64,000 bases of DNA from the NCBI GenBank assembly GCA_030603885.1, contig JAUVWW010000001.1, forward strand, positions 70,716 through 134,715, given 5' to 3'. The DNA comes from a bacterium (GTDB taxonomy: Bacteria > Patescibacteriota > JABMPQ01 > JAUVWW01). A program made the position numbers and the translations under genes. How positions within the stretch are numbered: the stretch's first letter is position 1; each line of letters begins with the position of its first letter. Positions 16,014-62,852 of this stretch are shown here, piece by piece. The notes under the pieces were generated by a model. The model did no database searches. It was not told the origin of the DNA and worked only from the letters and a program-made list of their open reading frames with translations.

Positions 16014-18803
16014 ATGACCAAAGAAAAAGCTAAGAAGAAAATCAAAGAACTTGTTAAAGATTACGAAGGTATAAAAAAGAGAGGTGAGGTTGGGTTATAC
16101 AAAGAAGAGACTACGAAACAACGATTTATTCAGCCTTTATTTAAAGCTCTGGGTTGGGATTTCAAAGTTGATGTTTGGCCCGAGGAAAAGGTTTCTAAAG
16201 GCAGGGTAGATTACGCTTTTAAATTAAATAACATTACTAAGTTTTTTGTAGAAACGAAATCATTGAAGATAGGTTTAGATAATCCCGACTATGATAAACA
16301 AGTAATTAACTATGGTTGGCTTAAGGATATAACCTGGGTGGTCTTAACTAATTTTGAGGAGTTAAAAATCTTTAATTCGGAATTGAAAGAAGAAAACCTA
16401 GTTCTTGATTTAACTTATGATAGATATTTAAAAGATTTTGATGATCTTTGGCGTTTAAGTAAAGAAGCTTTTATAAAAGGAGAACTTGATAGATGGGCAG
16501 AAAAATATGGCAAGAAAGCCAAGAGATTGAAAGTAGGAGAACAACTTTTTGAGGATTTATTACAATGGAGAAAATTTTTATCTGATAATGTATATCAGCT
16601 TCTAGGTTTATCAAAAGAAGAGATCAGTGAGGGGGTTCAGAGAATTCTGGACCGCCTTATTTTTATAAGAACTGCTGAAGATAGGGGGATAGAAGAAAAG
16701 ATTTTACTTCCCAAGCTAAGAGAATGGGAAGATAAAGGACGTAAGCAAGAATTTATGGAAGTCCTTAGTAAGGTTTTTAGAGATTTTGATGAAGGATATA
16801 ACAGTGAATTATTTGATCATCATGACTGCGAGAAGTGGGGGTTGGGAACAGAAGTTTTAGAAAAAGTAGTTAAAGGATTGTATAAAACCAAAGATGGTTT
16901 GGATTATGATTTTAGTGCTATTGGTAGTGATGTGCTGGGTGGAATCTATGAGCAATATTTAGGACATTTATTAGAGACGATTAAAGGAGAAACCAAGGTG
17001 ATTAGTGGCCGTGCCAAACGCAAAGAAAAGGGAATTTATTATACCCCTAAATTCATCGTTGATTATATTGTTAAAAATACTTTAGGCGAAGTTTTGAAAA
17101 ATAAGAAACCAAATGAGATAAGGAAGTTAAAAGTTTTAGATCCGGCTTGCGGCTCTGGATCATTTTTACAGAGAGCTCATCAAGAGATTGTTGATTACTT
17201 AGAAGAAAAGAAATCAGAAATCAAAGATGAAAAGAGTAAACTTGGTGCTATCGCTAAATTAATAAAAGAAAAAGAGGGCAAAAAAGAACTTTCTGTAGCT
17301 CAAAAAATTGAGATTTTAAGAAATAATATTTATGGGGTAGATCTAGATCATCAAGCAGTGGAGATTGCTCGTTTAAATTTATTATTAAAGGTTCTTAAAA
17401 AGAGACAAAGACTTCCTTTACTTGATGATACTATTAAAGAAGGTAATTCTTTAATTTCTGGAGATGAGAAAGAGTTGAAGAAATATTTTGGAGATAAATG
17501 GAAAGAGAAAAAACCTTTCAATTGGAAAGAGGAGTTTGAGGAAGTTTTTAGACAAGAAGGATTTGATGTGATTATTGGAAATCCGCCTTATGTGGGTTCC
17601 TTAGAGATTTCAAAAACAAGTTCGAAAGGAGAAAAGGATTATCTCAAAGAAAAATATAGATCTGCTCGTGGCGTTTACGACTTATATGTAGTGTTTTTAG
17701 AAAAGTCCATCAGATTACTTAAAGAGAAAGGATTGTTAGGGTTTATAGTTCCAAATAAGTTTATGTCTACAGATTATGGATTCCATCTCAGAAAATATAT
17801 CTTGGAGAAATGTTCGATAAGAGAAATAATTGACGTGTCTAGTTTGTCTGTGTTTAAAGGAGTGGCAGTCTATCCAATAATCCTCATTTTACAAAAAGAA
17901 AAAAGAAAAAAATATAGGGATAGAAATCAACTTTTATTTAATGAACTAGAAAATATTAATAAATTAGATTTTAAAGAAGGTAGATTAGTTCACCAATCTA
18001 TCTTTACACGAAATAATAAATATGTATTTAGTAGTTTTATTAGTGAAGGTATGATAGGATTGATAAAAAAATTTGAGAAACATACCATTCCATTATGCAA
18101 AGTTTCTGACGTTAGTAGTGGCACAACCGGTTTTGATTATTCAAGATATGGAAAGTTGATTACAGAACAGAAGCCTGAAAAAGAATATAGAAAATTTATT
18201 ATCACGCGTAATATTGAACCCTATTATATTTCCTGGGGTAAAAGAATAAATTATTTAAAAAGGTCTTTCATTCATCCATATCTAGCTTATAGCAAAAAAA
18301 TTATTTCGAAAGGCAAATGGGATCTTTTTAAAGACAAAAAAATTACAATTAGAGGCCTATCAAAAAGATTAACTGCCGCTGCCGATAATGAAGGTTTTGC
18401 TTTAGGGGTAGGAGTTTACGCCTTAAGAAATTTGAAGATTAATAAGAAATTTCTTTTAGCTCTCTTAAATTCAAAGGTTCTAGATTATTATTATCGGGTA
18501 AAGTTCTCTTCAAAGCATCTCGCTGGTGGTTATTTGGGCTTTAATGTAGGACAACTTTCCCAGCTCCCTATTTATAGAATTGATCTCTCTAAAAAATCTG
18601 ATAAGGAAAAACATGACAAACTGCTTAGATTAGTAAATAAGATATTAGAATTAAATAAAGAATTACAGAAGTTTGGAGACAAGATTACAGATAAAAGAAA
18701 AAAGATCGAGAAAGAAATTGAGAGGACGGATAGGAAGATTGATGGGGTGGTATATAAATTGTATGGATTAACTAGAAAGGAGATTAAAATAGTGGAAAAT
18801 TGA
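16014..18803 (+). CDS. MmeI-family Type IIG restriction endonuclease / N6-adenine DNA methyltransferase (single-chain RM)
   Basis: N-terminal PD-(D/E)xK motif with D66...E80-x-K82 (VDYAF...VETK). AdoMet motif I (VLDPACGSGSFL). Motif IV NPPY (IIGNPPYVG). A C-terminal TRD-like region. 929 aa, which is MmeI-like size. Confidence 0.85.
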   Translation: MTKEKAKKKIKELVKDYEGIKKRGEVGLYKEETTKQRFIQPLFKALGWDFKVDVWPEEKVSKGRVDYAFKLNNITKFFVETKSLKIGLDNPDYDKQVINYGWLKDITWVVLTNFEELKIFNSELKEENLVLDLTYDRYLKDFDDLWRLSKEAFIKGELDRWAEKYGKKAKRLKVGEQLFEDLLQWRKFLSDNVYQLLGLSKEEISEGVQRILDRLIFIRTAEDRGIEEKILLPKLREWEDKGRKQEFMEVLSKVFRDFDEGYNSELFDHHDCEKWGLGTEVLEKVVKGLYKTKDGLDYDFSAIGSDVLGGIYEQYLGHLLETIKGETKVISGRAKRKEKGIYYTPKFIVDYIVKNTLGEVLKNKKPNEIRKLKVLDPACGSGSFLQRAHQEIVDYLEEKKSEIKDEKSKLGAIAKLIKEKEGKKELSVAQKIEILRNNIYGVDLDHQAVEIARLNLLLKVLKKRQRLPLLDDTIKEGNSLISGDEKELKKYFGDKWKEKKPFNWKEEFEEVFRQEGFDVIIGNPPYVGSLEISKTSSKGEKDYLKEKYRSARGVYDLYVVFLEKSIRLLKEKGLLGFIVPNKFMSTDYGFHLRKYILEKCSIREIIDVSSLSVFKGVAVYPIILILQKEKRKKYRDRNQLLFNELENINKLDFKEGRLVHQSIFTRNNKYVFSSFISEGMIGLIKKFEKHTIPLCKVSDVSSGTTGFDYSRYGKLITEQKPEKEYRKFIITRNIEPYYISWGKRINYLKRSFIHPYLAYSKKIISKGKWDLFKDKKITIRGLSKRLTAAADNEGFALGVGVYALRNLKINKKFLLALLNSKVLDYYYRVKFSSKHLAGGYLGFNVGQLSQLPIYRIDLSKKSDKEKHDKLLRLVNKILELNKELQKFGDKITDKRKKIEKEIERTDRKIDGVVYKLYGLTRKEIKIVEN

Positions 18804-18843
18804 TATGAGAAACGCTATCCAAAGTTGGTAAAAATAATTTTTT

Positions 18844-19671
18844 ATGAAGTTTGATTTGAGAAACTGGAAATATCCCAATTTAAAAAAGTTTCTAGAAAAT
18901 CCTTTAACTATGGAAGGTTTAGATTATGATTTTAAAGAAAAAATACCAGATACTAGAGATGAAAAAGGGAAGCGAAGATTAAGAGAAAGTTTTTGTGCTT
19001 TTGCTAATAGTGATGGGGGTTATATATTTTTTGGAATAGATAACAATAAAAGACCTAAAGGAATATATGAGAGCGATTACGAATTTGAAACAAAACTTAA
19101 CAGAATTGTAACTAAAAAGATACTTCCCTCGATTCCTGTTTCAAATTGGCAGATCGCAAAAGATATTAATTTGCCAAGATCAGATGGAGTAGTGTTTGTA
19201 GTGCATATTTTCCCAAGTTTGAGTATCGACAAACCCCATATGACGTCTGAAAGAATTTTTATAAGAGAGCATGGGGAAACTAAGGCGCTAGATGATGGAA
19301 GAGATGTCCAAAAATTATTTGCTGTGAAGTTTAATCGTTATAACATCAAAGAATTAGAATACGACTTAGAAGAGATTAAGGAATGTAGGTTTACTCCTGA
19401 TGAGATAGATGTAATTTATTTAAAACAGTTAAAACATTATTTAGAAAACCAGATTAAGAAGAGAATCCCTGGGTTTCATAGTTTAGATTCTAAGTTAGAT
19501 AGGATCATGCAGTTGTACGAAGAGATAAAGAAAGAAATGTCTGAGGGATATAGAACAAATCAGGCTTCTAACGTTCTGAATAGTGAGAAGTTAATGAAGA
19601 AAGAAGGTTTATTAGGTTCTTCTGTGAAAGAGTTTTTAAAAGAATACAAAAATCTACATAACATACCATGA
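18844..19671 (+). CDS. AlbA_2 / Schlafen-like domain protein
   Basis: Core SFCAFANSDGGYIFFGIDNNKRPKGI matches the AlbA_2 signature (AFANt-GGyliiGvdd...G). Its stop overlaps the next start (ATGA). Confidence 0.7.
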   Translation: MKFDLRNWKYPNLKKFLENPLTMEGLDYDFKEKIPDTRDEKGKRRLRESFCAFANSDGGYIFFGIDNNKRPKGIYESDYEFETKLNRIVTKKILPSIPVSNWQIAKDINLPRSDGVVFVVHIFPSLSIDKPHMTSERIFIREHGETKALDDGRDVQKLFAVKFNRYNIKELEYDLEEIKECRFTPDEIDVIYLKQLKHYLENQIKKRIPGFHSLDSKLDRIMQLYEEIKKEMSEGYRTNQASNVLNSEKLMKKEGLLGSSVKEFLKEYKNLHNIP

Positions 19672-22600
19672 GTAAACAGGGTCAATACAATTACAGCGGA
19701 ATAAATTTCCAATCCTGGGCAGCAATGTCGTTGTTCTTGCAGTATTTGCGTGATTCTGATTTCTCACATATTTATTTGGAAGCCCCTGAGTTTCAAGATT
19801 TCAATTTAGTTTTTAATGATGGGAGAAAAATTATTTGCGAAGCAAAAAGTTGGAAGAAGAAATTTAGTTTTGCTGACTTAAGAAAAATTCTTACCTCTAT
19901 ACTAGATAAAGAAAATATAGGCAAAAATGATGAAGTTCTGATAATTTGCAGAAATTTAGATAAGAAATTAGAAAAAAAAGTTGAAAATATTAAATATTTT
20001 AGAGAGATCATTGCCCCTTATTTTAATAAGGAAAAGAGATTTTCAAAAGAAGAAATTGAAGTTTTACCTAAAGTAAATTTCTGGAAAGTTTCTGGAAAGA
20101 TTAATGAAAAAATCATATATTCCCTTTTTAGTGAATTATTGAATTTCTGGATACCAGAAGAAGATTTGAAGAGGATAGTAGACAGTATTTTAATGCAAAA
20201 AATTTATAAATGTTCTGCCAAGGGAACAGCATTTACAAGAATAGATCTTTTAATGGAAATAGAAAGTTTAAAAAGAGAGGTTATTGAGAAAAGCGGTGAT
20301 TTCGATGAAAATAGAAGGAAAATCGAAGATCAGCTTAAAGATGTGATCAAAGCAATTAAAGATAATAAATCATTAGTATGGACTCATGGCAGAGTTTCTG
20401 CACTTTCTGCTCAGCCGAATTTAATGTATTTTGTACTCCAAAAGTTTAAAGAGAAGAAAATTGATAAACTTGAGGACTGGAAAGACTTATGGGAGCTTAA
20501 TAAAGTATATGCGTTTTCTTTCGATATATTTAAAATTTTCGAGAGCAATCTTCATAACAGGAAAAACAGGGTATACATTTTAAAATTTATTAGAGAGAAT
20601 CTCCTGGGCTTTAGAAGGTTTTTTAGATCAGACTTCTTTGAAATGGGTGTAGTAAAAATTATGAATGGAGTCATAGAACAAGATAAAACTTTGCTTAATG
20701 AAGCTTTTGAAATTGTAAAGGAATTATTAAAAAGATACGAAAATGAATACTTCTATCTTAAAAGTAATCAAGATTCAGAATGGAGAAGAGGAGAAATTTG
20801 TAAATTACTTAAGAAGATTTATGAGAATAGCGATGAGAGTCTAAAAAACAGAATTTATGAATTAATAACTAATCATTTCAATCTAATTGCAGATGATAGC
20901 GAGTTTAGTTATTATACTCCCGAAGTTGTATTTAAAATTTTAGAAAATTGCTTAACAGATGGTTGGAATAAATTTGAAAAAAGATTTATTGAATTAAGTA
21001 AAATTTTAGCGGAGCAATATGAAAAGTTTTACAAGCGATTTGGTAAAAAAACAAAATTCAAGGGTTGGGAATTAATGGGTGGAGTAACTACGTCTTGGGG
21101 CCATGATTATAAAGTAATAGATAGACACTTTATTAGATTTACTTTAAAACCCGCATTAGGGAAATATTATAAAACTAACAAAAAGAGATGTTGGTCTTTT
21201 GTGATGGGAGAGTGTATTTCAACTACAAACAGAGTTAGTAGAAAGGGTCCTGATTTTTTGAATCGTGCTTCAGTTTCTATTATTTTGGATAGGTATAGAA
21301 ATAGAAATGCCAAAGTATCTAATAAAGCTTTTAGGATACTAAAAGAGTTTATTTTATCGTGGAAAGGCATACCTCATAAATCCGATTTAATTTATCAGGA
21401 GCTCCGCGGAGATTTCTCAGATGATAAGAAATGGAAATTAGTAAAAATAAGCATTGATAAATATAAACTGCCCATTAATTCTTTCGTGGAACAGATTGTT
21501 TTGGAGCTAGCTAAAAAGAGACATAAAAAATCAAAGGAAATATTGAGAGGTTGGATTAGAGATCCGAAGTATTATAAAAGAGGAATTTTTGAAAGAAATG
21601 TAATTGTAAATATTTCTCAATTTTTAGATGTTTCGTTTAATGAGGGGGTAGAGATGTTTAAGGATTTTATTAATGGAGATTATTTTCTAAAGAAAATGGA
21701 TTATTTTAATGCTTTTGAGGCAGCAAGAGTATTAAATAAAATTATAGATAGAAATTTCAACACAGGGTTAGAAATTCTCGAAACCTTATCTCAAAAATTA
21801 AAATTAACCGATAACGAACAAATTTTATTGTGTAGTAGCTTGACTGACAAAGACGATTCTAAACAAGAAAATAAAAAGGTTTTAATAAAGATTTATGAAG
21901 AGTTTTTGGGTCCATTCTTAGATAGTTTAGATAATGATATTAAAAAAATTGAAAAGAGAATTACTCGGCCACAATCTAGAGAAGCAATTGTAGAATTTGC
22001 TGATGCCCTGGTTAAACATCAGAAAATTCCAGAGGCAATGAGAATAGTAAGATTGTTTGTTAATGATTCTGATCCTTGTACTCCGGAGAAGGTCGATTCT
22101 GAAGATCTCAAGGGAGAATATGATAAACATAAACAAATTGAGCAAGGCGAAGATACTCTTACTATTAATACTGTAAGAGGTCGGTGTGCTTGGGTATTAA
22201 TGAATTGTGCAGTTTTGGCTGGTAGGGACCATATCGAGGAAATTATTAATTTAACAGAAAAATTAACAAAAGACAAAAATTACTATATTCAATGGATGTC
22301 TTGCCATTCTTTATCTCAATTAGCAAGAAATCGGCTTACAATAATGCCTGAAAATAAAAAAGAACTATTCTTTAATAAAGATAGAGAAAAAGCATTGAAA
22401 ATGGCTAAAAGAGTTGAAAAAATCGCTTTTGAATTATTAGAAAAATTCTCTAAGCTAGGACCCAAGCCAAGAGATGTTTTGATGAGAGCATTACTAAAAG
22501 TATTTGATCATATAAGAGGATTAAACCAGAAAGATGCAAGATTATTACTAAAGAAAATTTCCAAATGCGGAGAGAAAGTTTTTAGTGAAGCCGCTCCATT

Positions 22601-23300
22601 GTTTATTTACTTTGCTGAATTTAGACAAAAAGATTTTAAGAATTGGAAATGGCAGATGCCAGAATTATACGATGATTTGGAAAATTTCGACAATAAAGAA
22701 TTCCAAAAGTTTTTAGAAAATATTCTTAAGAAGAGAAATTCAAAAATTAATTCTCATTTTGCTTGGCGTTTCTGGAAGCTTACAAAGGAATCTGTGTCGG
22801 ATAAGGCAGATATAAAAAATGTGGTTAAATATAGCGAAGCATTCGAAATATCCGACAGATATTTGAATATTCTTTCAGATAGCTACGACCATCAAACATT
22901 TAAAAATATTTATTACTTTATTCGAGAGAATGTTGATAAGCGATTTAAAGAGTGTTATAAACTTTGGCGAAAGTGCCTAGCAAAAGAAAAGCCTGTTATG
23001 GAAAAGTTAATAAAAGAGGAGAAAATATACGAAACATCTTGGTGGCCATTTTATCATAACGACGAAATCTTAACAATCATCAAACAAAAAGCTGGTAATA
23101 AAGAATTTTTGAATTCTTTTGAATTTTTATTGAATTATCCAAATGAGGCTAACATTGGTGATATAAAAAATGTAGTCGAAGTTTTGCAGAGTTTACCATC
23201 CAAGTATAATCAGAGAGTAGAAAAAATCTTTGAAATGTTGATAGATAGAGATCCAAATTTCTATGACATAAAAGAAAGCTGGGTAGAAAGAGAGAAATAG
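19668..23300 (+). CDS. large (1210 aa) uncharacterised protein: N-terminal PD-(D/E)xK-like motif plus a long alpha-helical repeat body, no P-loop
   Basis: N-terminal GINFQSW...IYLE...DFNLVFNDGRKIICEAKSWKK, a D...E-x-K arrangement reminiscent of DUF4297/NERD-type nucleases. No GxxxxGK[ST] anywhere. K/E/L-rich helical sequence throughout. Confidence 0.6.
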   Translation: MSKQGQYNYSGINFQSWAAMSLFLQYLRDSDFSHIYLEAPEFQDFNLVFNDGRKIICEAKSWKKKFSFADLRKILTSILDKENIGKNDEVLIICRNLDKKLEKKVENIKYFREIIAPYFNKEKRFSKEEIEVLPKVNFWKVSGKINEKIIYSLFSELLNFWIPEEDLKRIVDSILMQKIYKCSAKGTAFTRIDLLMEIESLKREVIEKSGDFDENRRKIEDQLKDVIKAIKDNKSLVWTHGRVSALSAQPNLMYFVLQKFKEKKIDKLEDWKDLWELNKVYAFSFDIFKIFESNLHNRKNRVYILKFIRENLLGFRRFFRSDFFEMGVVKIMNGVIEQDKTLLNEAFEIVKELLKRYENEYFYLKSNQDSEWRRGEICKLLKKIYENSDESLKNRIYELITNHFNLIADDSEFSYYTPEVVFKILENCLTDGWNKFEKRFIELSKILAEQYEKFYKRFGKKTKFKGWELMGGVTTSWGHDYKVIDRHFIRFTLKPALGKYYKTNKKRCWSFVMGECISTTNRVSRKGPDFLNRASVSIILDRYRNRNAKVSNKAFRILKEFILSWKGIPHKSDLIYQELRGDFSDDKKWKLVKISIDKYKLPINSFVEQIVLELAKKRHKKSKEILRGWIRDPKYYKRGIFERNVIVNISQFLDVSFNEGVEMFKDFINGDYFLKKMDYFNAFEAARVLNKIIDRNFNTGLEILETLSQKLKLTDNEQILLCSSLTDKDDSKQENKKVLIKIYEEFLGPFLDSLDNDIKKIEKRITRPQSREAIVEFADALVKHQKIPEAMRIVRLFVNDSDPCTPEKVDSEDLKGEYDKHKQIEQGEDTLTINTVRGRCAWVLMNCAVLAGRDHIEEIINLTEKLTKDKNYYIQWMSCHSLSQLARNRLTIMPENKKELFFNKDREKALKMAKRVEKIAFELLEKFSKLGPKPRDVLMRALLKVFDHIRGLNQKDARLLLKKISKCGEKVFSEAAPLFIYFAEFRQKDFKNWKWQMPELYDDLENFDNKEFQKFLENILKKRNSKINSHFAWRFWKLTKESVSDKADIKNVVKYSEAFEISDRYLNILSDSYDHQTFKNIYYFIRENVDKRFKECYKLWRKCLAKEKPVMEKLIKEEKIYETSWWPFYHNDEILTIIKQKAGNKEFLNSFEFLLNYPNEANIGDIKNVVEVLQSLPSKYNQRVEKIFEMLIDRDPNFYDIKESWVEREK

Positions 23301-41700: not shown

Positions 41701-43149
41701 TTAACTCTTAACTTTCCAGACTGGTCCTTTATCCGTATCCTTAACTTCGACCCCTATTTTCCTTAACTTATTTCGAATTTGGTCTGCTTTTTTCCAATCT
41801 TTGGCTTTCCGAGCCCTTTCTCGTTCTTTAATTAGCCCTAAAATCTTAACTTCTTTGGCTTTTGATATCTTAGCTATCTTTTTTGCTTTAATTACTCCCA
41901 AAGCCTTATCAAAGTCCATTAAAAGCTTATGTAGTGCTTTGGCTTCAGCCTTATTAATCTTACCTTTGTCTAATAACTTATTTCCTTGTTTGACTAAATC
42001 AAAGATAGAAGCTAGTGCTTTTGGCGTGTCCAAATCATTGTCCATGGACTTTTCAAAGTTCTTTTTAGTTTTTTCTATCAACTTCTTAACAACAGGCTTT
42101 ACAGCTTTAGCTTTTAACTTTTGACTTTTAACTTTTAACTTGTTTAAAAATTCTCTTATTCTTTCCAGTCCTTCACTTACCTGGACCAATGCCTTTTCTG
42201 AAAAATCCATGTGTGATCTATAATGGGAGAGTAGGGTCAAGAATCTAAAATCTATAGGATCATATTTTTTCTTTTCCAAATCTCGCAGAGTATAAAAGTT
42301 ACCTAAAGATTTGGACATCTTTTTACCTTCGACTAGAAGATGCCGACAATGTATCCAATATCGAACAAATTTTTTGTTCGTGTAAGCTTCTGATTGAGCA
42401 ATTTCATTTTCGTGATGGGGAAAGATATTGTCTTCGCCGCCAGTATGGATATCTAAGGTAGGGCCTAGATATTTCATTGACATTACAGAACACTCAATAT
42501 GCCAGCCAGGATAGCCTATACCCCAGGGGCTTGGCCATTTCATGAGATGCTCCTTGGGAGCTTTGAGCCAGAGGAAAAAATCATAGGGATGACGTTTGTC
42601 TGGATGTGGTTCAAGTCTAGCCCCTGCTTTTAACGCCTCTAGAGGATTACCCGAAAGCTTTCCATAGTTTTTAAATCTAGTTATGTCATAAAAGACCGTG
42701 CCTTTAGCTTCATAGGCATAGTCTTTCTTAATTAAAACTTGAATTAATTTTATGATGTCTTGAAGGTGCTCTGTGGGACGAGGATACTTATAGGCTCTTT
42801 TAATATTTAGCTTATCAGTATCCTCTAGAAAAGCTTTCTCGTAAAATCGAGCAATCTCTTTTGGTGTCTTTTTTTCCTTTTTTGCAGCTTCAATAATTTT
42901 ATCTTTAGCAGCTTTAACATCATATCTTGTTAGATGTCCAACATCAGTAATATTCATTACTTGTTTTACTTTATAGCCTTTGTATTCTAAATATCTTCTT
43001 ATGGTATCAGCCATAATATAGGCTCTAAAATTGCCAATATGAGCAAAATCATAGACAGTTGGTCCACAATTGTACATTCTAACCTCACCTTTATGTAAAG
43101 ACTTAAAGATTTGTTTTTTTCTTAAGAGAGTGTTGTAGAATTTGAGCAT
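41701..43149 (-). CDS. cysS: cysteinyl-tRNA synthetase
   Basis: HIGH (FAHIGN) and KMSKS motifs. The N-terminus MLKFYNTLLRKKQIF matches the canonical CysRS start, so I set the start at 43149 and not at the ORF-track upstream ATG at 43245. Confidence 0.88.
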   Translation of the reverse strand: MLKFYNTLLRKKQIFKSLHKGEVRMYNCGPTVYDFAHIGNFRAYIMADTIRRYLEYKGYKVKQVMNITDVGHLTRYDVKAAKDKIIEAAKKEKKTPKEIARFYEKAFLEDTDKLNIKRAYKYPRPTEHLQDIIKLIQVLIKKDYAYEAKGTVFYDITRFKNYGKLSGNPLEALKAGARLEPHPDKRHPYDFFLWLKAPKEHLMKWPSPWGIGYPGWHIECSVMSMKYLGPTLDIHTGGEDNIFPHHENEIAQSEAYTNKKFVRYWIHCRHLLVEGKKMSKSLGNFYTLRDLEKKKYDPIDFRFLTLLSHYRSHMDFSEKALVQVSEGLERIREFLNKLKVKSQKLKAKAVKPVVKKLIEKTKKNFEKSMDNDLDTPKALASIFDLVKQGNKLLDKGKINKAEAKALHKLLMDFDKALGVIKAKKIAKISKAKEVKILGLIKERERARKAKDWKKADQIRNKLRKIGVEVKDTDKGPVWKVKS

Positions 43150-43185
43150 ATGCAGTTTAGGAATAGAGCCTTTAGGTTCTTTAAA

Positions 43186-43229
43186 GAAGCTTCCGCCTGT
43201 GGCGGATCCGCCTTTGGCGGAAAAGCTTC
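43186..43229. promoter_or_regulatory. 44-nt near-perfect palindrome in the cysS 5' leader, containing AAGCTT...GGATCC...AAGCTT
   Basis: gaagctt-ccgcc-tgt-ggcgg-atcc-gcc-ttt-ggcgg-aaaagcttc read directly. Two nested small hairpins (ccgcc-NNN-ggcgg) sit inside outer aagctt arms. Confidence 0.5.
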
Positions 43230-43265
43230 TACTCCATCTTACCATCTCCCAAAAATTTTATCAAA

Positions 43266-43306
43266 CAAAAGAGCACCTCTGAGATTTAAAGAGGTACTCT
43301 TTTTGT
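43266..43306 (-). terminator. Rho-independent terminator after the 43318-43980 gene
   Basis: An 11-bp stem (one G-U on the minus-strand RNA) with a 9-nt loop, followed by a U-rich tract. Confidence 0.65.
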
Positions 43307-43317
43307 TTCGGTTACTT

Positions 43318-43980
43318 TTATTTGTATAGGTAGTGCTCAACTGCCCACCAAGGCCAGTATTTGTATATGTAGTGCTCAATTGCCTGCCAAGGGTAGCGGC
43401 CTGCATAGACGCTGTCGTCATGCTCCAATTCCAGTTCTCTCAGATCATCATTTTTTGGACGGTTAACTGCCGTCATTTTTCCTGGAACAAGCTCTTCCTT
43501 TGTACTTTTTCTAACGATCCACTTGTCAAGCGGAAGTCCTTCCTCTCCATAATTCTCGTCGATGTAGTCTTCAAAATCTTCCTTGACATATTTCTCGTAA
43601 GCTGTAACATCTGGTTTTTCTATAGGTGTTCTTGATTCACAGAGAACAAAAGCATCATCTTTATTACTGATGAGATCACTAGGTTCCGCTGATCTGTAAA
43701 GCTTCTCCTCTGTGTTTGTTATAAGGACTATAGTACATTCAGCACCTATCATGCTACAAAATTCCTTACCAGTTTTACTTTCCCTGGGATACACCTGATA
43801 CAGTTTTTTATATTGAAGAGCTACTGCTTCCTCTTCAGTTATTGTTTTTGTAGTTACTGGTTGTCTTAATGTTGCATTTCTAATTCCAAAAAAAGCTGCA
43901 GCGGCTAGAGCAACAATTCCTATAACTAAGGCAATAGTTGCTGTTCGGGTGGCGACTCTAGTTTCTGTTGTTTGTTGCAT
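43318..43980 (-). CDS. hypothetical membrane-anchored/secreted protein, paralog A (W/Y-rich C-terminal repeats)
   Basis: N-terminus MQQTTETRVATRTATIALVIGIVALA is shared with paralog B. Strong SD (AAGGGGGTGAT) 4 nt upstream. C-terminal repeats WQAIEHYIYK / WWAVEHYLYK. Confidence 0.6.
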   Translation of the reverse strand: MQQTTETRVATRTATIALVIGIVALAAAAFFGIRNATLRQPVTTKTITEEEAVALQYKKLYQVYPRESKTGKEFCSMIGAECTIVLITNTEEKLYRSAEPSDLISNKDDAFVLCESRTPIEKPDVTAYEKYVKEDFEDYIDENYGEEGLPLDKWIVRKSTKEELVPGKMTAVNRPKNDDLRELELEHDDSVYAGRYPWQAIEHYIYKYWPWWAVEHYLYK

Positions 43981-44040
43981 TTTTATCACCCCCTTTCTTT
44001 GGGATTTCTATAGGATATCTATCTATTTTAAGTTTATCAT
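43898..44040. repeat. duplicated promoter/RBS/signal-anchor segment, copy 1 (pairs with 44756-44900)
   Basis: A near-identical ~145-bp block covers the first ~28 codons plus ~60 bp upstream of both paralog genes. Confidence 0.75.
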
Positions 44041-44157
44041 TATATAAATAGGTTGTCAATAACCTAAAATAATTTAAAAAATTATTTACAATTATGTCTA
44101 TAAATCAAAACAACCCCAGATAGAGGTTGTTTTGAAGTATGAAATGATTTTTGTTTT

Positions 44158-44838
44158 TTATAGGGGTGCTGCTTGTTCACCTGGAGGTATAGGATAAGTA
44201 TAGCATGTACCACTACAATCAATGTCTACACATCCAAATGGATTGCAATCGCCACCCCAAACACTACAGGCACAACCAGTAGTCCATCCTCCCCCCTCTA
44301 ATTTTACTTCACAGAAATCTTTAAAAGATCTTACTGGAATTACAAGAAGGGCTCTATCTGTCGGTCCGGGAAAAACTTGTAATACTTTAACTGGCGAACC
44401 AAGATCTTCTGTAGAAGCAACGAAATTTTGTTCAAAACATACTGTTTCATCTGGCTTAATTTCCTTATACAGTATATGTGCAACAGTTTCTTCGTTTTCC
44501 GGATCATAAAAAGTTTCTTCAAGAGTAACTTCATATCTCATGTCATCTCCTTCATAAATTGCTTTGTTACATTTTTCTGCAAGAAATATGTCATTGTTAT
44601 CCTTCAAATAGAAATTATAAGTTTCATCACAATAACTTAGATCTTCTCTTGATTTTTCCACGGTACCAGCTGGTTTAGTTACTGGTTTAGTTACTGCTTC
44701 ATTTACTGGTTTAGTTACTGCTTGTTGTCTTAGTGCCAGACCTCCCAGAGCACCTGCAGTGGCTAGAGCAACAATTCCTATAACCAAAGCAATAGTTGCT
44801 GTTCTGGTAGCTACTCTAGTTTCTGTTGTTTGTTGCAT
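44158..44838 (-). CDS. hypothetical membrane-anchored/secreted protein, paralog B (Cys-rich C-terminus)
   Basis: The N-terminal ~30 aa are identical to paralog A. The C-terminal ~45 aa carry 9 Cys (GCACSVWGGDCNPFGCVDIDCSGTCYTY). Confidence 0.6.
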   Translation of the reverse strand: MQQTTETRVATRTATIALVIGIVALATAGALGGLALRQQAVTKPVNEAVTKPVTKPAGTVEKSREDLSYCDETYNFYLKDNNDIFLAEKCNKAIYEGDDMRYEVTLEETFYDPENEETVAHILYKEIKPDETVCFEQNFVASTEDLGSPVKVLQVFPGPTDRALLVIPVRSFKDFCEVKLEGGGWTTGCACSVWGGDCNPFGCVDIDCSGTCYTYPIPPGEQAAPL

Positions 44839-44900
44839 TTTTTATCACCCCCTTTCTTTGGGATTTCCACTAGGATATTTATCTATTTTAAGTTTATCAA
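44756..44900. repeat. duplicated promoter/RBS/signal-anchor segment, copy 2
   Basis: See copy 1. The sequences differ at only a few positions. Confidence 0.75.
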
Positions 44901-44921
44901 TACAGAAATAAATTGTCAAAT

Positions 44922-45890
44922 TTATTTTAGCTTCTCTTTGGGTATATCTACCCATTCAGAAAGAATGTCTTTGATATCCTCAACAGTAACTTTGTCTTGC
45001 GGCTTTCCTTCTATGGCTAGCTTTGCTTTGGCGCAGGCCTCATCGATCAAATCTATTGCTTTATCAGGAAGATATCTATTTTTGATGTATTTTGCAGATA
45101 AATTGACTGCTGTTTTAATGACTTCATCTGAAATTTCTACTTTATGATAATCCTCATAAGCCTTGCGCAGTCCTTGTAATATTTTTATAGAATCTTCAAT
45201 TGATGGCTCTCGAACAATGACTGGTTGGAAACGTCTTTCCAGGGTCAAATCTTTCATAATATAATTTTCGTATTCTTCAGGAGTAGTAGCTCCTATAGCT
45301 TGAACCACACCTCTAGCTAAAGATGGCTTTAATATGTCAGAGGCGGCAACAGCCCCTTCTGTACCTCTTGTTTCTGTTAAGATATGCAGTTCATCAATAA
45401 ATAAAATAATACTTCTTTCGGCTCTCTCTATTTCACTTGTGATCCTCTTCATTCTTATCTCAAATTCACCTCTATATTTTGTTCCAGCCATAAGACCAGA
45501 AAGATCAAGATCTAGGACTCTTTTATCTTTTAGTCTTTCGGGCACTTTTCCTTCAACGATTCTTTGAGCTAATCCTTCAACAATAGCTGTTTTTCCTACA
45601 CCTGGGGGACCAATTAAAACTGGATTACTTTTCTTTTTTCGACTGAGAATATGGATGGTTCTAGCTATCTCTTTTTCTCGGTTAATTACTGGATCCAGCT
45701 CTCCCTTTCGGGCCAGTGAAGTTAGATCTTTAGAATAACGGTCTAAAGCTGGAGTTGGGCCTAGACCTAGACCTCTTATATCGCCAATTCTTCCTTTTAT
45801 TCTTCCTTTAAAATAATACCAAAAAGCAACAGCTGCTATGATTATAGCTAACAAAACGTACCAAAAATAATTATTAGTAGTTAGATCCAT
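44922..45890 (-). CDS. membrane-anchored AAA+ ATPase consisting of a Clp/Hsp100 NBD1 only
   Basis: N-terminal TM helix. [63 protein letters not shown] matches ClpA/B/C NBD1. The protein ends where the M-domain/NBD2 would begin. I set the start at the internal Met (MDLTT...) to avoid overlap with corA. Confidence 0.7.
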
Positions 45891-46792
45891 TTTTTTCTTA
45901 TAAAATATCCAAGCATTACTATAACTACACCTATCATTATAGCAGAAATTATCCAAAAAGCAAAGGGATGATCTAAAAAGGGCATCCAGGAGATATTCAT
46001 TCCATAAATTGAAACAATAAGGGTTAAAGGAAGCATAATAACTGAGATAATGGTCAACACTTGCATAGTAGCACTGGTTTTGTGAGAAATTAAAGAGTCA
46101 TTGGTTCGTTCCAAAGCTCGAATAGTATCAATTTCATTCTCCAAAGCAGTCCAAGCTTCAAGAGCCTTTTCTGTAAGATCTTCTAGTTTATTGGCCATTT
46201 TTTCTTCTGGTTTGAAATGATTTACTCTTTTTTCCAATTTTTGCATTACTCCAAGTTGGGGTCCAATGATTTCTCCAAAGTCTAAGATGTTTCTTTTGGT
46301 AAGAGCAATTTTTCTGACCATTTCTTTTTCTTTCCCTAAAAATATATCTCTTTTTATTTTTTCTATCTGTTTACTTAATTCCTCCAATAAAGGAAAATAA
46401 GCCACATGTAATTTTCTTAAAATAAAATAAAATAAAGAACCCACATTGGGATAGTCTTTTTTAATTTGTTCCTCATCAATATCTCTTAGAAACTTAGTGT
46501 AAGGTGGAATTTTTCCTGAATGAAAAGTAATGAGATAATCTTTTCCTACAAATATATCTAACTCTTGGGCTTCAGTTTCTCTTTCCTCTGTAAGGCAAAG
46601 GGGATATTTTACAATTAAAAAAAGATAGCCATTGTGCTGGACTAATTTTGGCTTTTGAGTAGGAATTTGGCAATCTTCGGTATCCAGCCTATAGAGATTG
46701 TATTTTTTAGCTAGCTCTTCTATTTTTCCTTTGGAGGGATTTTCCACATCCAGCCAAAGAAAATTTTTTGTTTTGAATTCTTTTGTTTTCAT
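45881..46792 (-). CDS. corA: magnesium/cobalt transporter CorA
   Basis: C-terminal YGMN motif followed by two TM helices. Confidence 0.85.
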
Positions 46793-47460: not shown

Positions 47461-49983
47461 ATGCCTATAGAGCCTACAATTGAAGCAATCGATTGGTACA
47501 TGGTTGGCTTTGTGGCCTTATTTGTGGCAATTTGTTTGGTTTTTGTACTGGCGGTCTTAGCTTTTGTTTTTAGATTTTTGAGATCCCGAAACATGGTTCC
47601 CAAATCCTTGAATATGGTTACTCTTTTGGTGATGGTTCCAAGAGAGCTAAGGGAGAAAGAGGCAGAGCCCAAAAAAGAAGAAAAAGATATCATTTCTGTA
47701 GCTGAGACTATGTTTGCCAATTTATCTGCTATCAAAGTTCGAGCCAATTGGATGAAGAATCTTCTTTTGGGAAGAGATTATCTTAGCTTTGAGTTGGTAG
47801 CCGTAAAAGAAGAAATTTGTTTTTATGTAGTTACCCCAAGGTATCTACAATCGTTTATAGAAAAGCAGATCCATTCTCAATATCCAAAAGCCTTAGTTCA
47901 AGAAGCAGGAGAATATAATATCTTTCAGCCAAAAGGCTTTGTTAAAGGAACCACATTAAAATTCGCCAAAAGATATTATCTTCCTATAAAAACTTATAAA
48001 ACTTTAGAGACAGATCCTCTAAATGCTTTAGCTGAAGCTTTGTCTAAGCTTTCTGAAAAAGAAGGAGCTTGCATCCAGATACTTATTAGACCTGCTCCAA
48101 AAGGTTGGGCAGCTAGAGGGAAAAAGATTGCCAGAGTCATGAAACAGGGAAAGAGTTTTGAGGAAGCTACTGGAAAAAATATTTTTTCTGAGATGTGGGC
48201 AGCTTTAACCAAGGAAGTTAAAAGAGCAGCTACTCCTGAAGAAGTAATAAAAATGAGACGTGCTTATGGATATGAGGAAGAGAAACCAAAAGTACTTACT
48301 CCCATGCAGGAAGAGATGGTCAAGGCTTTGGAGGAAAAAGCAGGCAAACTAGGATTTGAAACTAACATAAGAATAGTTGCCTCCTCAGATACAGAAGAAA
48401 AAGCTAAGATGCATCTGGATAACATAGTAGGAGCCTTTACTCAGTTTAGCCATCCTTATTTCAACAGTTTTAAATCAATTGGTGTTCCCAAAAAGAAATT
48501 AATTCGGGATTTTATCTTCCGTTATTTTGAAGAAGGTAAAAAATTTATTTGCAATACAGAAGAGCTAACTTCAATTTATCATTTTCCAACTAAATATCTA
48601 GAAGTTCCTCATGTAAAATGGCTTTTAGCTAAGCAAGCTCCACCTCCTTCTGATGCACCTAAAGAAGGCCTGCTTTTAGGAAAAAATATCTATCGAGGAG
48701 TAGAAACACCTGTCTATATCAAAGACGATGATAGACGTCGGCATATATACATGATTGGAATGACCGGGACTGGTAAATCTACCTTATTGCTAAACATGGC
48801 TGTTCAAGATATTAAAAATGGAAAAGGACTATGTGTTATTGATCCTCACGGAGATTTAATTGAAGCTATACTTGAGCATATTCCTAAAGAAAGAGCTGAC
48901 GATGTCATTCTCTTTGATCCTTCTGACTTGGAACGGCCTTTAGGCTTAAATATGCTTGAATGGAAAAGACCAGAGGAGAAAGATTCTGCTGTGGCAGAGA
49001 TGATTGCTATTTTTTACAAACTTTTTCCTCCGGAAATCATTGGTCCTATGTTTGAGCACAATATGCGTAATGCTATGTTGACTTTGATGGAGGATAAAGA
49101 ACATCCGGGAACCATTGCTGAAATCCCTAGGATGTTTACAGATACAGATTTTCAAAATTATAAACTAAAGAAAGTAAAAGATCCTGTGGTTAGAGCTTTT
49201 TGGGAAAAAGAGATGGCCAAGACTTCAGATTTTCATAAATCAGAGATGCTGGGATATTTAATTTCCAAAGTTGGTAGATTTGTGGAAAATGAAATGATGA
49301 GAAATATTATTGGCCAGGCAAAATCGGCTTTTGATGTAAGAGAAGTTATGGACGAAGGGAAAATTTTACTAGTTAATCTTTGTAAGGGTAAAGTGGGAGA
49401 AATAAATAGTCATCTTTTGGGTTTAATTTTAGTTTCTAAAATTATGATGGCAGCACTTTCTCGAGTGGATACTCCAGAAAAGCAAAGAAGAGACTTCTAT
49501 CTTTATGTGGATGAGTTTCAAAACTTTGTCTCAGACACCTTTGTTTCTATTATTGCCGAGGCTCGAAAATATAGACTAAATCTTATTATTAGCCATCAAT
49601 TTATTGGTCAGCTAGATGAGAAAATGAGAGATGCAGTTTTAGGTAATGCCGGAACCTTTACGTGTTATAGAATAGGGGTTGAGGATGCAGAAATAGCAGC
49701 CAAGGAATTTGATCCTATCTTTGACCAAACAGATGTTATTAATATTGAAAGATTCAATCTATATTTACGCTTGATGATAAACAACACTGCCTCAAAGCCA
49801 TTTTCTATGGCTGCTTTTCCTCCTCCTCCAGGTGGATCAGAAGAAGTAGCCAAAGCTGTAAAAGAGCTCTCTAGACTAAAACATGGAAAAGAGAAAAAAG
49901 TAATAGAAACCGAAATTTTAGAGCGAGCTAAACTTGGAGCTCCAATTAGAGAAGCAGCCATGGGAAGAGAAGTGAGTCTGTAA
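47461..49983 (+). CDS. membrane-anchored P-loop ATPase of the type IV coupling protein (VirD4/TraG/TraD) / VirB4-like family
   Basis: N-terminal TM helices. Walker A (MIGMTGTGKSTLL) followed by CVIDPHGD. Walker B (LYVDEFQNF). Downstream RK and sensor residues. Confidence 0.65.
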   Translation: MPIEPTIEAIDWYMVGFVALFVAICLVFVLAVLAFVFRFLRSRNMVPKSLNMVTLLVMVPRELREKEAEPKKEEKDIISVAETMFANLSAIKVRANWMKNLLLGRDYLSFELVAVKEEICFYVVTPRYLQSFIEKQIHSQYPKALVQEAGEYNIFQPKGFVKGTTLKFAKRYYLPIKTYKTLETDPLNALAEALSKLSEKEGACIQILIRPAPKGWAARGKKIARVMKQGKSFEEATGKNIFSEMWAALTKEVKRAATPEEVIKMRRAYGYEEEKPKVLTPMQEEMVKALEEKAGKLGFETNIRIVASSDTEEKAKMHLDNIVGAFTQFSHPYFNSFKSIGVPKKKLIRDFIFRYFEEGKKFICNTEELTSIYHFPTKYLEVPHVKWLLAKQAPPPSDAPKEGLLLGKNIYRGVETPVYIKDDDRRRHIYMIGMTGTGKSTLLLNMAVQDIKNGKGLCVIDPHGDLIEAILEHIPKERADDVILFDPSDLERPLGLNMLEWKRPEEKDSAVAEMIAIFYKLFPPEIIGPMFEHNMRNAMLTLMEDKEHPGTIAEIPRMFTDTDFQNYKLKKVKDPVVRAFWEKEMAKTSDFHKSEMLGYLISKVGRFVENEMMRNIIGQAKSAFDVREVMDEGKILLVNLCKGKVGEINSHLLGLILVSKIMMAALSRVDTPEKQRRDFYLYVDEFQNFVSDTFVSIIAEARKYRLNLIISHQFIGQLDEKMRDAVLGNAGTFTCYRIGVEDAEIAAKEFDPIFDQTDVINIERFNLYLRLMINNTASKPFSMAAFPPPPGGSEEVAKAVKELSRLKHGKEKKVIETEILERAKLGAPIREAAMGREVSL

Positions 49984-61959: not shown

Positions 61960-62568
61960 ATGATAAAAAAATTATTAGTAGCCACACATAATCCGGCAAA
62001 AGTTGAAGAATACAAAAAATATTTAGCAGATTTGCCTTTAGAAATTGTTTCTTTAGGTGATTTGAATATTACTAAGAAAGTTAAGGAAAATGGTAAGACT
62101 TTCAAAGAAAATGCTATTCTAAAAGCAGAAACTTACGGAAAATTGACTGGACTTCCTGCTATTACTGATGATGGAGGGCTAGAGATTGATGCTTTGGGAG
62201 GCGAGCCAGGGATTAGAAGCCGCAATTGGCTTGGATACAGAATGACTGATGAGGAAATGATTGGTGAGGTAATGAAGAGAATGGAAGGTGTGCCTAAGAA
62301 TCAACGAACTTGTCGATTGGTTGGAGTAATTGCTTTATTTACACCTCGAGATAAAATCTATACACAATACGCATGTAAAAGAGGCATAATATCTTTAAAG
62401 CCTTGTGAAAAAAGAGTTCCTGGATATCCTTTTCGTTCAATTTTCTTTCTACCAGAGTTTAAAAAATTTTATAGTCAATTGACTGAAGAAGAACATGAGC
62501 AGGTTAATCACCGAAAATTTGCTCTAGAAAAATTAAAGAAAATCTTAAAGAAAGGGGGTGATAAATAA
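61960..62568 (+). CDS. rdgB: non-canonical purine NTP pyrophosphatase (RdgB/Ham1)
   Basis: LVATHNPAKVEE start and downstream Ham1 motifs. Confidence 0.85.
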   Translation: MIKKLLVATHNPAKVEEYKKYLADLPLEIVSLGDLNITKKVKENGKTFKENAILKAETYGKLTGLPAITDDGGLEIDALGGEPGIRSRNWLGYRMTDEEMIGEVMKRMEGVPKNQRTCRLVGVIALFTPRDKIYTQYACKRGIISLKPCEKRVPGYPFRSIFFLPEFKKFYSQLTEEEHEQVNHRKFALEKLKKILKKGGDK

Positions 62569-62852
62569 TGTGCTACTCAATACCTGTAATTGCAGCTATT
62601 AGTACTTCCTTGGTCTGGCGTCAAAAAAGAGAACCAAATATTTGGTGGCTTAATTTGATGCTTTGGGGGGGTGCTTTGTTTGGAGTAATAGACCATCTTT
62701 GGAATGGAGAGCTATTTCTTATCTCTGAGAACATAGGCAAAGATTTAGCCTTAGGATGCGTGATTACTGCTGCCATATTTATCATTTGGAGAATAATTCT
62801 TGTCTTTGCCAAAAAAGGTCTTCTTCAAAAAAAGAAAATTAAGATATCTTAA
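62568..62852 (+). CDS. hypothetical small membrane protein
   Basis: Two or three TM helices. Confidence 0.4.
   Translation: MCYSIPVIAAISTSLVWRQKREPNIWWLNLMLWGGALFGVIDHLWNGELFLISENIGKDLALGCVITAAIFIIWRIILVFAKKGLLQKKKIKIS

Follow-up and report, generated by a model that had tools for sequence, protein, structure and literature searches.

In Mycoplasma, the variable surface proteins of the Vlp, Vsp, Vpma and Vsa families are encoded by neighbouring paralogues that have a conserved 5' non-coding region and signal sequence, divergent and partly repetitive mature regions, and variation from strain to strain. Here we describe two adjacent genes, designated A and B, in a 64,000-nt stretch of a bacterial genome (contig JAUVWW010000001.1, positions 70,716 to 134,715; this whole stretch is called the window, and positions are given in its coordinates). 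The two genes carry one kind of start module, from promoter to N-terminal anchor, on unrelated ectodomains that are hypervariable between strains. Variable surface proteins have also been reported from DPANN archaea and from bacteria of the Candidate Phyla Radiation (CPR). In Nanoarchaeota, hypothetical proteins with a single N-terminal transmembrane (TM) segment are among the gene categories with a significantly higher density of non-synonymous single-nucleotide polymorphisms (PMC6142677), and a Gracilibacterium, a CPR bacterium, has a hypervariable surface-protein gene (PMC6851277).

A and B resemble the Mycoplasma variable lipoproteins in their conserved 5' untranslated region (UTR) and signal region and in their divergent mature parts. 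They differ in being only two genes, both equipped for expression, with no lipobox, so that they are not lipoproteins, and no site-specific recombinase or promoter repeat switch, and they have no sequence homology to the Vlp, Vsp, Vpma or Vsa families. With the DPANN and CPR surface proteins they share an N-terminal helix followed by a predicted extracellular domain, elevated variation and a proposed contact with a host, but neither report describes a homogenised module of promoter, Shine-Dalgarno sequence (SD) and anchor, or this domain family (PMC6142677; PMC6851277). Five proteins (P0007-P0011; loci L084-L087 and L090), archaeal where traced, share with A a four-cysteine core and the layout of N-terminal anchor plus linker, and a second gene for an anchored protein typically follows theirs. 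Unlike these, A lies in a bacterial genome, has an anchor of the type found in B and a longer, six-cysteine tail, and its neighbour B is unrelated to the archaeal second gene. Paralogous surface proteins that vary behind a conserved 5' region are a known kind, and the proteins themselves are a new, very rare family. What is new about the locus is that a homogenised module from promoter to anchor stands on non-homologous payloads, that this arrangement recurs independently in an archaeon and that a bacterium and archaea share a domain.

Both genes lie on the minus strand, A upstream of B, between a clp-like AAA+ gene (44922-45956) upstream of A and cysS (41701-43245) downstream of B:

44158-44838, minus strand: coding sequence of gene A, 226 aa, with an N-terminal signal/anchor (uncharged residues 13-36), a T/K/P linker, a 4-Cys core domain and a 6-Cys tail, in this order
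43318-43980, minus strand: coding sequence of gene B, 220 aa, with an N-terminal signal/anchor as in A (uncharged residues 13-33), an acidic ectodomain and a W/Y-rich C-terminus
44753-44919, minus strand: 5' module, copy A, with promoter, 5'UTR, SD AAAGAAAGGGGGTGAT (44844-44859) and codons 1 to about 28
43895-44059, minus strand: 5' module, copy B, with promoter, 5'UTR, SD (43985-44000) and codons 1 to about 28
44891-44919, minus strand: promoter of A, -35 TTGACA, 17-nt spacer with TG, -10 TAAACT, starting directly past the stop codon of the upstream clp-like gene
44031-44059, minus strand: promoter of B, TTGACA, 17-nt spacer, TGaTAAACT, arranged as in A
44100-44140, minus strand: intrinsic terminator of A, a hairpin followed by a T run (-19.7 kcal/mol, z score -5.6)
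43263-43308, minus strand: intrinsic terminator of B, a hairpin (-21.6 kcal/mol, z score -7.2), identical in sequence in the related strain

Because each gene has its own promoter and its own terminator, A and B form two transcription units with one kind of start module. In a four-way alignment that included the two genes of a related strain, the module begins exactly at the -35 TTGACA and runs through the -10 element and a 5'UTR of about 45 nt to codon ~27. It measures about 166 nt in each gene, and 151 of 167 aligned positions match between A and B (90.4%; 44753-44919 versus 43895-44059). The first-pass annotation, made from the letters of the window, had described a nearly exact duplication of about 145 bp; the duplicated block is real, but it is longer and less exact than that. 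The promoters agree with the consensus at 10 of 12 positions, carry the TG of an extended -10 element and are conserved in all four copies. The first 26 residues of A and B are identical, with only five synonymous differences in the 26 codons, and the run of A between SD and ATG differs in length (A6 versus A5). The remaining parts of the genes could not be aligned. Protein similarity was confined to residues 1-49 by BLASTP and 1-48 by hhalign, so that nothing detectable is shared past residue ~48, in agreement with the earlier observation that the mature regions are unrelated.

Core patterns of 24 and 26 nt from the block had 0 occurrences in 100 shuffles of the window. Pattern searches of the window with 3 mismatches recovered the two known copies and no third. 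Among 5.8 billion protein sequences, no other protein with this N-terminus was found at E <= 0.01, and the full-length proteins returned A, B and one 79%-identical relative of A only. A degenerate N-terminal coding pattern had 0 matches in collections of genomes, metagenomes and viral contigs, the metagenome set evidently being without the JGI sample of the related strain, and viral contigs gave no relatives of A or B, which speaks against a viral origin. The cassette family that the first-pass annotation had predicted is a two-member set, with no third copy in the window and none in the 5.8 billion proteins.

The strength of each SD was calculated as its duplex energy with the anti-SD for 65 open reading frames (ORFs) of the window, ribosomal protein genes included. 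The window is nearly SD-less, with a median of -2.3 kcal/mol. The very strong SD noted earlier in both genes was borne out: it is 14-16 nt long and reaches -22.7 kcal/mol, a value attained by A, B and the ORF 62568-62852 only (3/65 ORFs with a strong SD). This third ORF, on the plus strand, encodes a 94-aa membrane protein without a Pfam match. Its extended SD context, a pattern match at 62539-62570 (plus strand), reads AAAATCTTAAAGAAAGGGGGTGATAAATAATG, versus GAAATCCCAAAGAAAGGGGGTGATAAAAATG in A and B, and lies within the 3' end of the gene before it (61960-62568). We rejected the match at 62539 as a third copy of the block, as it is only the extended SD in front of another small membrane ORF.

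The strain comparison was made with a single related strain. Its counterpart of A, designated A', is the 79%-identical relative (P0002), whose gene lies between the 3' part of clp and the beginning of B' on L001, a JGI contig of 1.76 kb. L083, another contig from this sample, holds the final part of B' and, after it, cysS, and B' (169 aa) was reconstructed from the two contigs by their 14-nt end overlap. Both genes lie at the same locus in the same order and orientation as in the window, their ORFs are intact in both strains, and the flanking DNA is about 97% identical. Presence-or-absence variation between strains, which the first-pass annotation had raised, was not seen, both genes being in place; strong divergence of the ectodomains was.

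Within the block, identity was 90.4% and 90.5% for the two paralogue pairs and 89.3% and 91.6% for the two orthologue pairs, and the closest pair was a cross pair, B of the window with A' of L001 (95.2%). Two variable sites group A with B' and B with A', one follows orthology and one groups the genes by genome. In codons 1-36 of A, the synonymous divergence (dS) was 0.52, compared with 0.17-0.20 in the flanks. The pattern is reticulate, since paralogues are about as alike as orthologues, sites follow a cross pattern and dS is raised in codons 1-36 of A; on this sequence evidence it would be explained best by repeated exchange, that is, gene conversion, between the two 5' ends. The sharp homology boundary, the similar identity of paralogues and orthologues and the mosaic sites are as in the concerted evolution of 5' ends of tandem paralogues, of which a 238-nt tract on the archaeal contig L084 (described below) is a further instance. 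Unlike in general 5'-end conversion, the tract in A and B is a functional module, promoter through anchor, on non-homologous remainders.

Downstream of the module, the parts of the two genes are as follows:

44670-44720, minus strand: linker repeat of A, a 12-nt tandem repeat in 4.2 copies that encodes a VTKP-type linker
44299-44646, minus strand: core ectodomain of A, residues ~65-180, homologous to P0007-P0011, with four invariant Cys
44161-44295, minus strand: Cys-rich tail of A, residues 182-226, C-x-C-x6-C-x4-C-x4-C-x3-C
43321-43398, minus strand: tandem units in B, two 39-nt units encoding RYPWQAIEHYIYK and YWPWWAVEHYLYK

Between the strains, the flanking genes evolve at ordinary constraint: dS was 0.165 and the ratio of nonsynonymous divergence (dN) to dS was 0.04 for clp, and the values for cysS were 0.188 and 0.21. 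In residues 37-181 of A, dS equalled that of the flanks (0.20), with a dN of 0.175 and a dN/dS of ~0.86. In the tail (residues 182-226), dN was 0, the protein being identical in the two strains with one synonymous change. All 10 Cys of A and all family-invariant residues are kept in the related strain. B and B' are 31% identical in a BLASTP local alignment and 41% over the MAFFT-aligned residues, with an indel of ~50 aa and a dS of ~1, near saturation. They share the N-terminal block, a YWPWWAVExxxYK end (YWPWWAVERAIYK in B') and the identical terminator. Apart from this strain variant, no homologue of the B ectodomain was found. Both ectodomains are hypervariable between near-identical backgrounds. 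In A this looks like rapid change in place, and in B like replacement of alleles between conserved ends or divergence far beyond the background.

The C-terminal cassettes of the first-pass annotation need redrawing, because the variation lies in the middle of A and of B and the extreme C-termini are conserved. The W/Y-rich repeat that it reported at the DNA level in B is there: the last 26 residues are two 13-aa units, duplicated within 43321-43398, and 35/39 nt of the unit align at 89% identity. Its 9-Cys tail in A is a miscount, in that A has 10 Cys in all, four in the core (C70, C90, C134 and C176) and six in the last 45 residues (C189, C191, C198, C203, C208 and C212).

An exhaustive phmmer search with the A ectodomain against 1.84 billion representative sequences found five remote homologues of the core (P0007-P0011; E values from 6.5e-24 to 2.8e-8). 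A further candidate, P0006, was rejected as a repetitive artefact. The alignment spans residues ~65-180 of A, with C70, C90, C134 and C176 invariant and the family motifs R(R/K)(K/Y)EVT(L/F)H, AHIxYK and GFAVxVLE. In most of the five, the C-terminus is a short, variable tail with Cys, which in two resembles GGWxCxC. Searching with a profile of the family alignment gave no further members, a scan of metagenomes gave one locus with a close relative of P0011, and the archaeal family had no match among Pfam families or PDB sequences. All four contigs that could be traced are archaeal, carrying genes for L31e, S19e, NFACT-R, IF5A, Spt5-NGN, RadA, Cbf5 or an intein-containing gyrase; from gene content and low GC these archaea are likely DPANN. 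The window has the gene content of an ordinary bacterial chromosome (ribosomal protein genes, rpoA, murA, mreB, ddl, dnaB, recR; 34.9% GC), from which the GC content of A and B does not deviate. Judged by sequence, A is a bacterial gene with a domain that, among the homologues traced, is otherwise seen only in archaea. All five homologues have a different anchor, ME(N/K/T)xxFW...GxxxG...TGxA, in place of the MQQTTETRVATRTATIALVIGIVALA that A has in common with B. This foreign anchor on every homologue of the core indicates that the module and the payload of A were joined by recombination.

The archaeal loci also contain gene pairs. On L084, a direct repeat of 238 nt with 98% identity links the A-like gene (P0007) to the gene after it (221 aa). 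The repeat comprises ~99 nt of upstream sequence with a TATA-like box and an SD, and 46 codons; unrelated Cys-rich payloads follow. L087 has the same synteny as L084 (Cbf5, the A-like gene, the second gene, L31e, S19e, YhbY, NFACT-R and CysRS), but there the N-termini of the A-like and second genes are only 34% identical, and orthologues on the two contigs are 27-30% identical. This pattern indicates that the archaeal gene pair is old and its homogenisation on L084 recent. In P0010, a domain like the second gene (36% identity over 125 aa) is fused to an A-like domain, and this Rosetta-stone-type fusion hints that the two archaeal ectodomains may work together. Gene B is not a member of the archaeal family, and a tblastn search of the archaeal loci with B and B' gave no match. 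CysRS genes stand near the A-like gene in the bacterium and in the archaea; the proteins are only 44-47% identical, which is not decisive on co-transfer.

Two further observations concern these contigs. P0007 is without the Cys tail seen in related proteins, and at its end stand two copies of the motif GAAGATTATTGTCTA (EDYCL), ~45 nt apart (L084, 880-935). The doublet looks like a scar of the rearrangement that created or homogenised the 5' block of L084. The gene directly downstream of the A-like gene belongs to another small family in archaea, whose proteins are anchored, rich in Cys and marked by a CxDxDG-type motif (L087, 5863-6246; L084, 1020-1685; residues 1-125 of P0010), and its x87 member has many N-x-S/T sequons.

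As to topology, both proteins have an uncharged stretch, of 24 residues in A and 21 in B, followed by the T/K/P linker, and both ectodomains are acidic. AlphaFold2 (AF2) predicted a helix at residues 5-36 in A and 5-37 in B, with moderate confidence in the B model only. A signal peptide cleaved by signal peptidase I would have a hydrophobic region of about 7-15 residues ahead of an A-x-A site, and an uncleaved anchor a helix of 20 or more. The 21-24 uncharged residues favour an uncleaved anchor over a cleaved signal peptide; the A-L-A at residues 24-26, which coincides with the end of strict identity between A and B, also fits cleavage. There is no lipobox, as the first Cys is residue 70 in A and 75 in B and none stands near the hydrophobic region. 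Given the uncharged helix with its T/K/P linker, the conserved Cys and the acidic ectodomains, A and B are predicted to be extracytoplasmic and N-terminally anchored, or exported if cleaved after Ala26.

The reading that we favour, with moderate confidence, is a co-expressed pair of anchored, rapidly diversifying surface proteins with a gene-converted start module. A and B would be separately transcribed and very strongly expressed, and the same N-terminal helix would hold each at the membrane, or export it if cleavage occurs after Ala26. Gene conversion between the neighbours would keep the module of ~166 nt alike and stop where homology ends, just past the anchor, so that, through the shared module, the two proteins would be expressed at one level and targeted alike. 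The unrelated ectodomains would diversify fast between strains, the 4-Cys core of A changing at a near-neutral rate with the 6-Cys tail fixed, and the middle of B being replaced, or diverging beyond saturation, between conserved ends. The pair may act in cell-cell contact (attachment to a host), or serve as recognition targets for phage or host, under diversifying selection; such a role agrees with the reports from Nanoarchaeota and Gracilibacterium (PMC6142677; PMC6851277). The sequences directly show the anatomy, the reticulate block, the rates between strains, the homology of the A core to proteins that are archaeal where traced, and the archaeal gene pair and fusion; that the ectodomains lie outside, that the two proteins function jointly and that selection drives the variation are the elements of this reading that we infer. 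Of the first-pass view, conserved export and expression signals with swapped payloads, the first half is extended to a complete expression-plus-export module on two unrelated, strain-hypervariable ectodomains, and the second half finds a counterpart in the recombination of module and payload in A.

Several points weigh against an anchored, diversifying pair. The organism is presumably CPR-like; what the window shows is a bacterium with 34.9% GC and hardly any SDs. The comparison comprises two strains only, so that a dN/dS of ~0.86 is compatible with positive selection as well as with relaxed constraint. B' depends on joining L001 to L083 over an overlap of 14 nt. The charge balance around the helix is ambiguous, and the A-L-A at 24-26 would suit a cleaved signal peptide too. 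As B has no homology to the second gene of the archaea, the analogy of the pairs is one of position and architecture only. Neither A nor B had a significant match in Pfam, NCBIfam, PHROG, PADLOC or the PDB sequences. The AF2 models are poor, with pLDDT values of 40.8 for B (single sequence) and 39.0 for A (two sequences; below 40 in the tail), and a Foldseek search of the PDB with the A model gave only E > 0.1 and TM-scores < 0.2, which is uninformative with models in the pLDDT range of 39-41.

An alternative is that A and B are dispensable, lineage-specific ORFans under relaxed constraint, and that the block is only what remains of a recent tandem duplication after one of the 3' parts was replaced by non-homologous sequence. 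Near-neutral change in the A core, the extreme divergence of B and the near-absence of homologues in the 5.8 billion proteins would all be expected of such genes. Their intact ORFs in both strains would not, nor would the retention of the 10 Cys and the family-invariant residues, a tail with dN = 0, or the strongest promoter and SD signals of the window. Moreover, an A-like gene is syntenic across archaeal lineages whose copies are only 30% identical, and the mosaic of sites in the block needs repeated exchange rather than a single duplication. We regard this explanation as unlikely.

The block could also be conserved as a cis-acting RNA leader, such as an SD-sequestering switch or thermometer, and not by gene conversion. 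The UTR is highly conserved in all four copies, and the minimum-free-energy folds of B in the window and of A' pair the SD (GGGGGUGAU) with codons 9-12 (GUCGCCACCC), with a shorter version in B'. This folding is, however, not significantly better than that of shuffled sequences (z scores from -0.3 to -1.7), and the pairing is lost in A of the window through synonymous changes. A search of the whole 64 kb with Rfam gave no tRNA or other family at gathering score, and the matches in the A/B region were at chance level. The promoter is conserved too and the site pattern is reticulate, neither of which suits an RNA leader, and we hold this account to be improbable.

Programmed antigenic or phase variation of the Mycoplasma vlp/vsp/vpma type, in which alternative cassettes are recombined or expressed at the conserved 5' region and signal peptide, is close to what the first-pass annotation had proposed. 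A promoter, UTR and signal block that stay conserved while the mature parts diverge, the in-frame tandem repeats in both genes, the A6/A5 difference between SD and ATG and the hypervariability between strains would suit it. But there are only two copies, each with promoter and terminator, and neither a promoter-less silent cassette nor a lipobox Cys after the hydrophobic region was seen. No recombinase is found among the neighbours (clp-like, cysS, dnaB, corA), and order and orientation are unchanged in the second strain. With no toxin/immunity signature found either, the proposed pattern of variable cassettes is not supported, and programmed switching appears very doubtful.

By the logic of polymorphic toxins, in which a conserved N-terminal part serves trafficking and a variable C-terminal part is toxic, A and B might instead be a pair of secreted toxin- or bacteriocin-like effectors. 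The conserved N-terminus with a variable remainder, a VirD4/TrwB-like ATPase ~2.5 kb away and a small Cys-rich tail weakly like a knottin inhibitor would be in keeping with this. The knottin match (4aor_D), the only one of the A tail among PDB sequences, is not significant (E = 1.8), and it is the middle of each protein that varies while the C-terminal ends are conserved. A terminator follows directly after each gene, with no immunity-like small ORF, and no toxin or defence family matched; effectors of this type are very improbable here. Targeted hypermutation by a diversity-generating retroelement, which local hypervariability bounded by conserved sequence might bring to mind, can practically be set aside, as no template-repeat copy lies near the genes, the window's large unannotated ORFs, as far as scanned, gave no match to reverse transcriptases, and the strains differ throughout the ectodomain, by large indels among other changes.

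A co-expressed pair of anchored surface proteins thus remains our preferred reading, and it has a bolder extension, which we put forward tentatively as possible rather than likely. A and B, and the first and second genes of the archaea, may be two-component adhesin or recognition pairs of ultra-small episymbionts, with the core domain having moved between DPANN archaea and a bacterium, probably of the CPR. Recurrent conversion of the promoter-SD-anchor module would then enforce equal expression and co-localisation of the partners, possibly through pairing of identical TM helices. If true, this would be an undescribed way to couple two fast-evolving surface proteins.

Some further features of the neighbourhood were observed. 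The clp-like protein (44922-45956, minus strand) has 344 aa only, with a predicted N-terminal TM helix and the first AAA+ module alone (AAA + AAA_lid_9), without the M-domain and the second ATPase domain; its low dN/dS between strains (0.04) indicates strong purifying selection. The match to it from Patescibacteria (L026) is a normal full-length ClpB of 880 aa, and a search for loci with this neighbour returned generic ClpB/ClpC loci only, without synteny. AT-rich inverted repeat arms of 23 nt (44061-44083 and 44911-44933; 78% complementary) flank gene A with its promoter, just upstream of each -35 element. They are probably a chance feature of AT-rich DNA; no inversion at them was seen, the orientation being the same in the related strain.

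In the upstream part of the annotated cysS ORF (43150-43245, minus strand), there are twin GC-rich hairpins, CCGCCAAAGGCGG and CCGCCACAGGCGG, bracketed by GAAGCTT/AAGCTTC. They fold with -41.4 kcal/mol (z score -3.8), and the related strain retains them, changed in a loop only. Other CysRS proteins are similar from residue 33 onwards, so that the hairpins probably sit in the cysS leader, and they may be a regulatory element. Elsewhere in the window, the segments 16014-23300 and 47461-49983, both on the plus strand, hold two further finds. One is a probable defence cluster, with an Eco57I/MmeI-type restriction-modification enzyme, a Schlafen/AlbA_2 protein and a 1210-aa ORF without a family match. 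The other is the VirD4/TrwB-like protein 2.5 kb from the A/B locus, a coupling ATPase whose N-terminus has a TM region.

The means by which CPR bacteria and DPANN archaea find and bind their hosts are largely obscure, and candidates are hard to pick among thousands of hypothetical genes. The A/B locus is a concrete, testable candidate, with the strongest expression signals of the window, ectodomains that are predicted to face outward and vary between strains, and a core that crosses the domains of life. It also suggests that gene conversion can keep an expression-and-targeting module alike between genes whose remainders are non-homologous.

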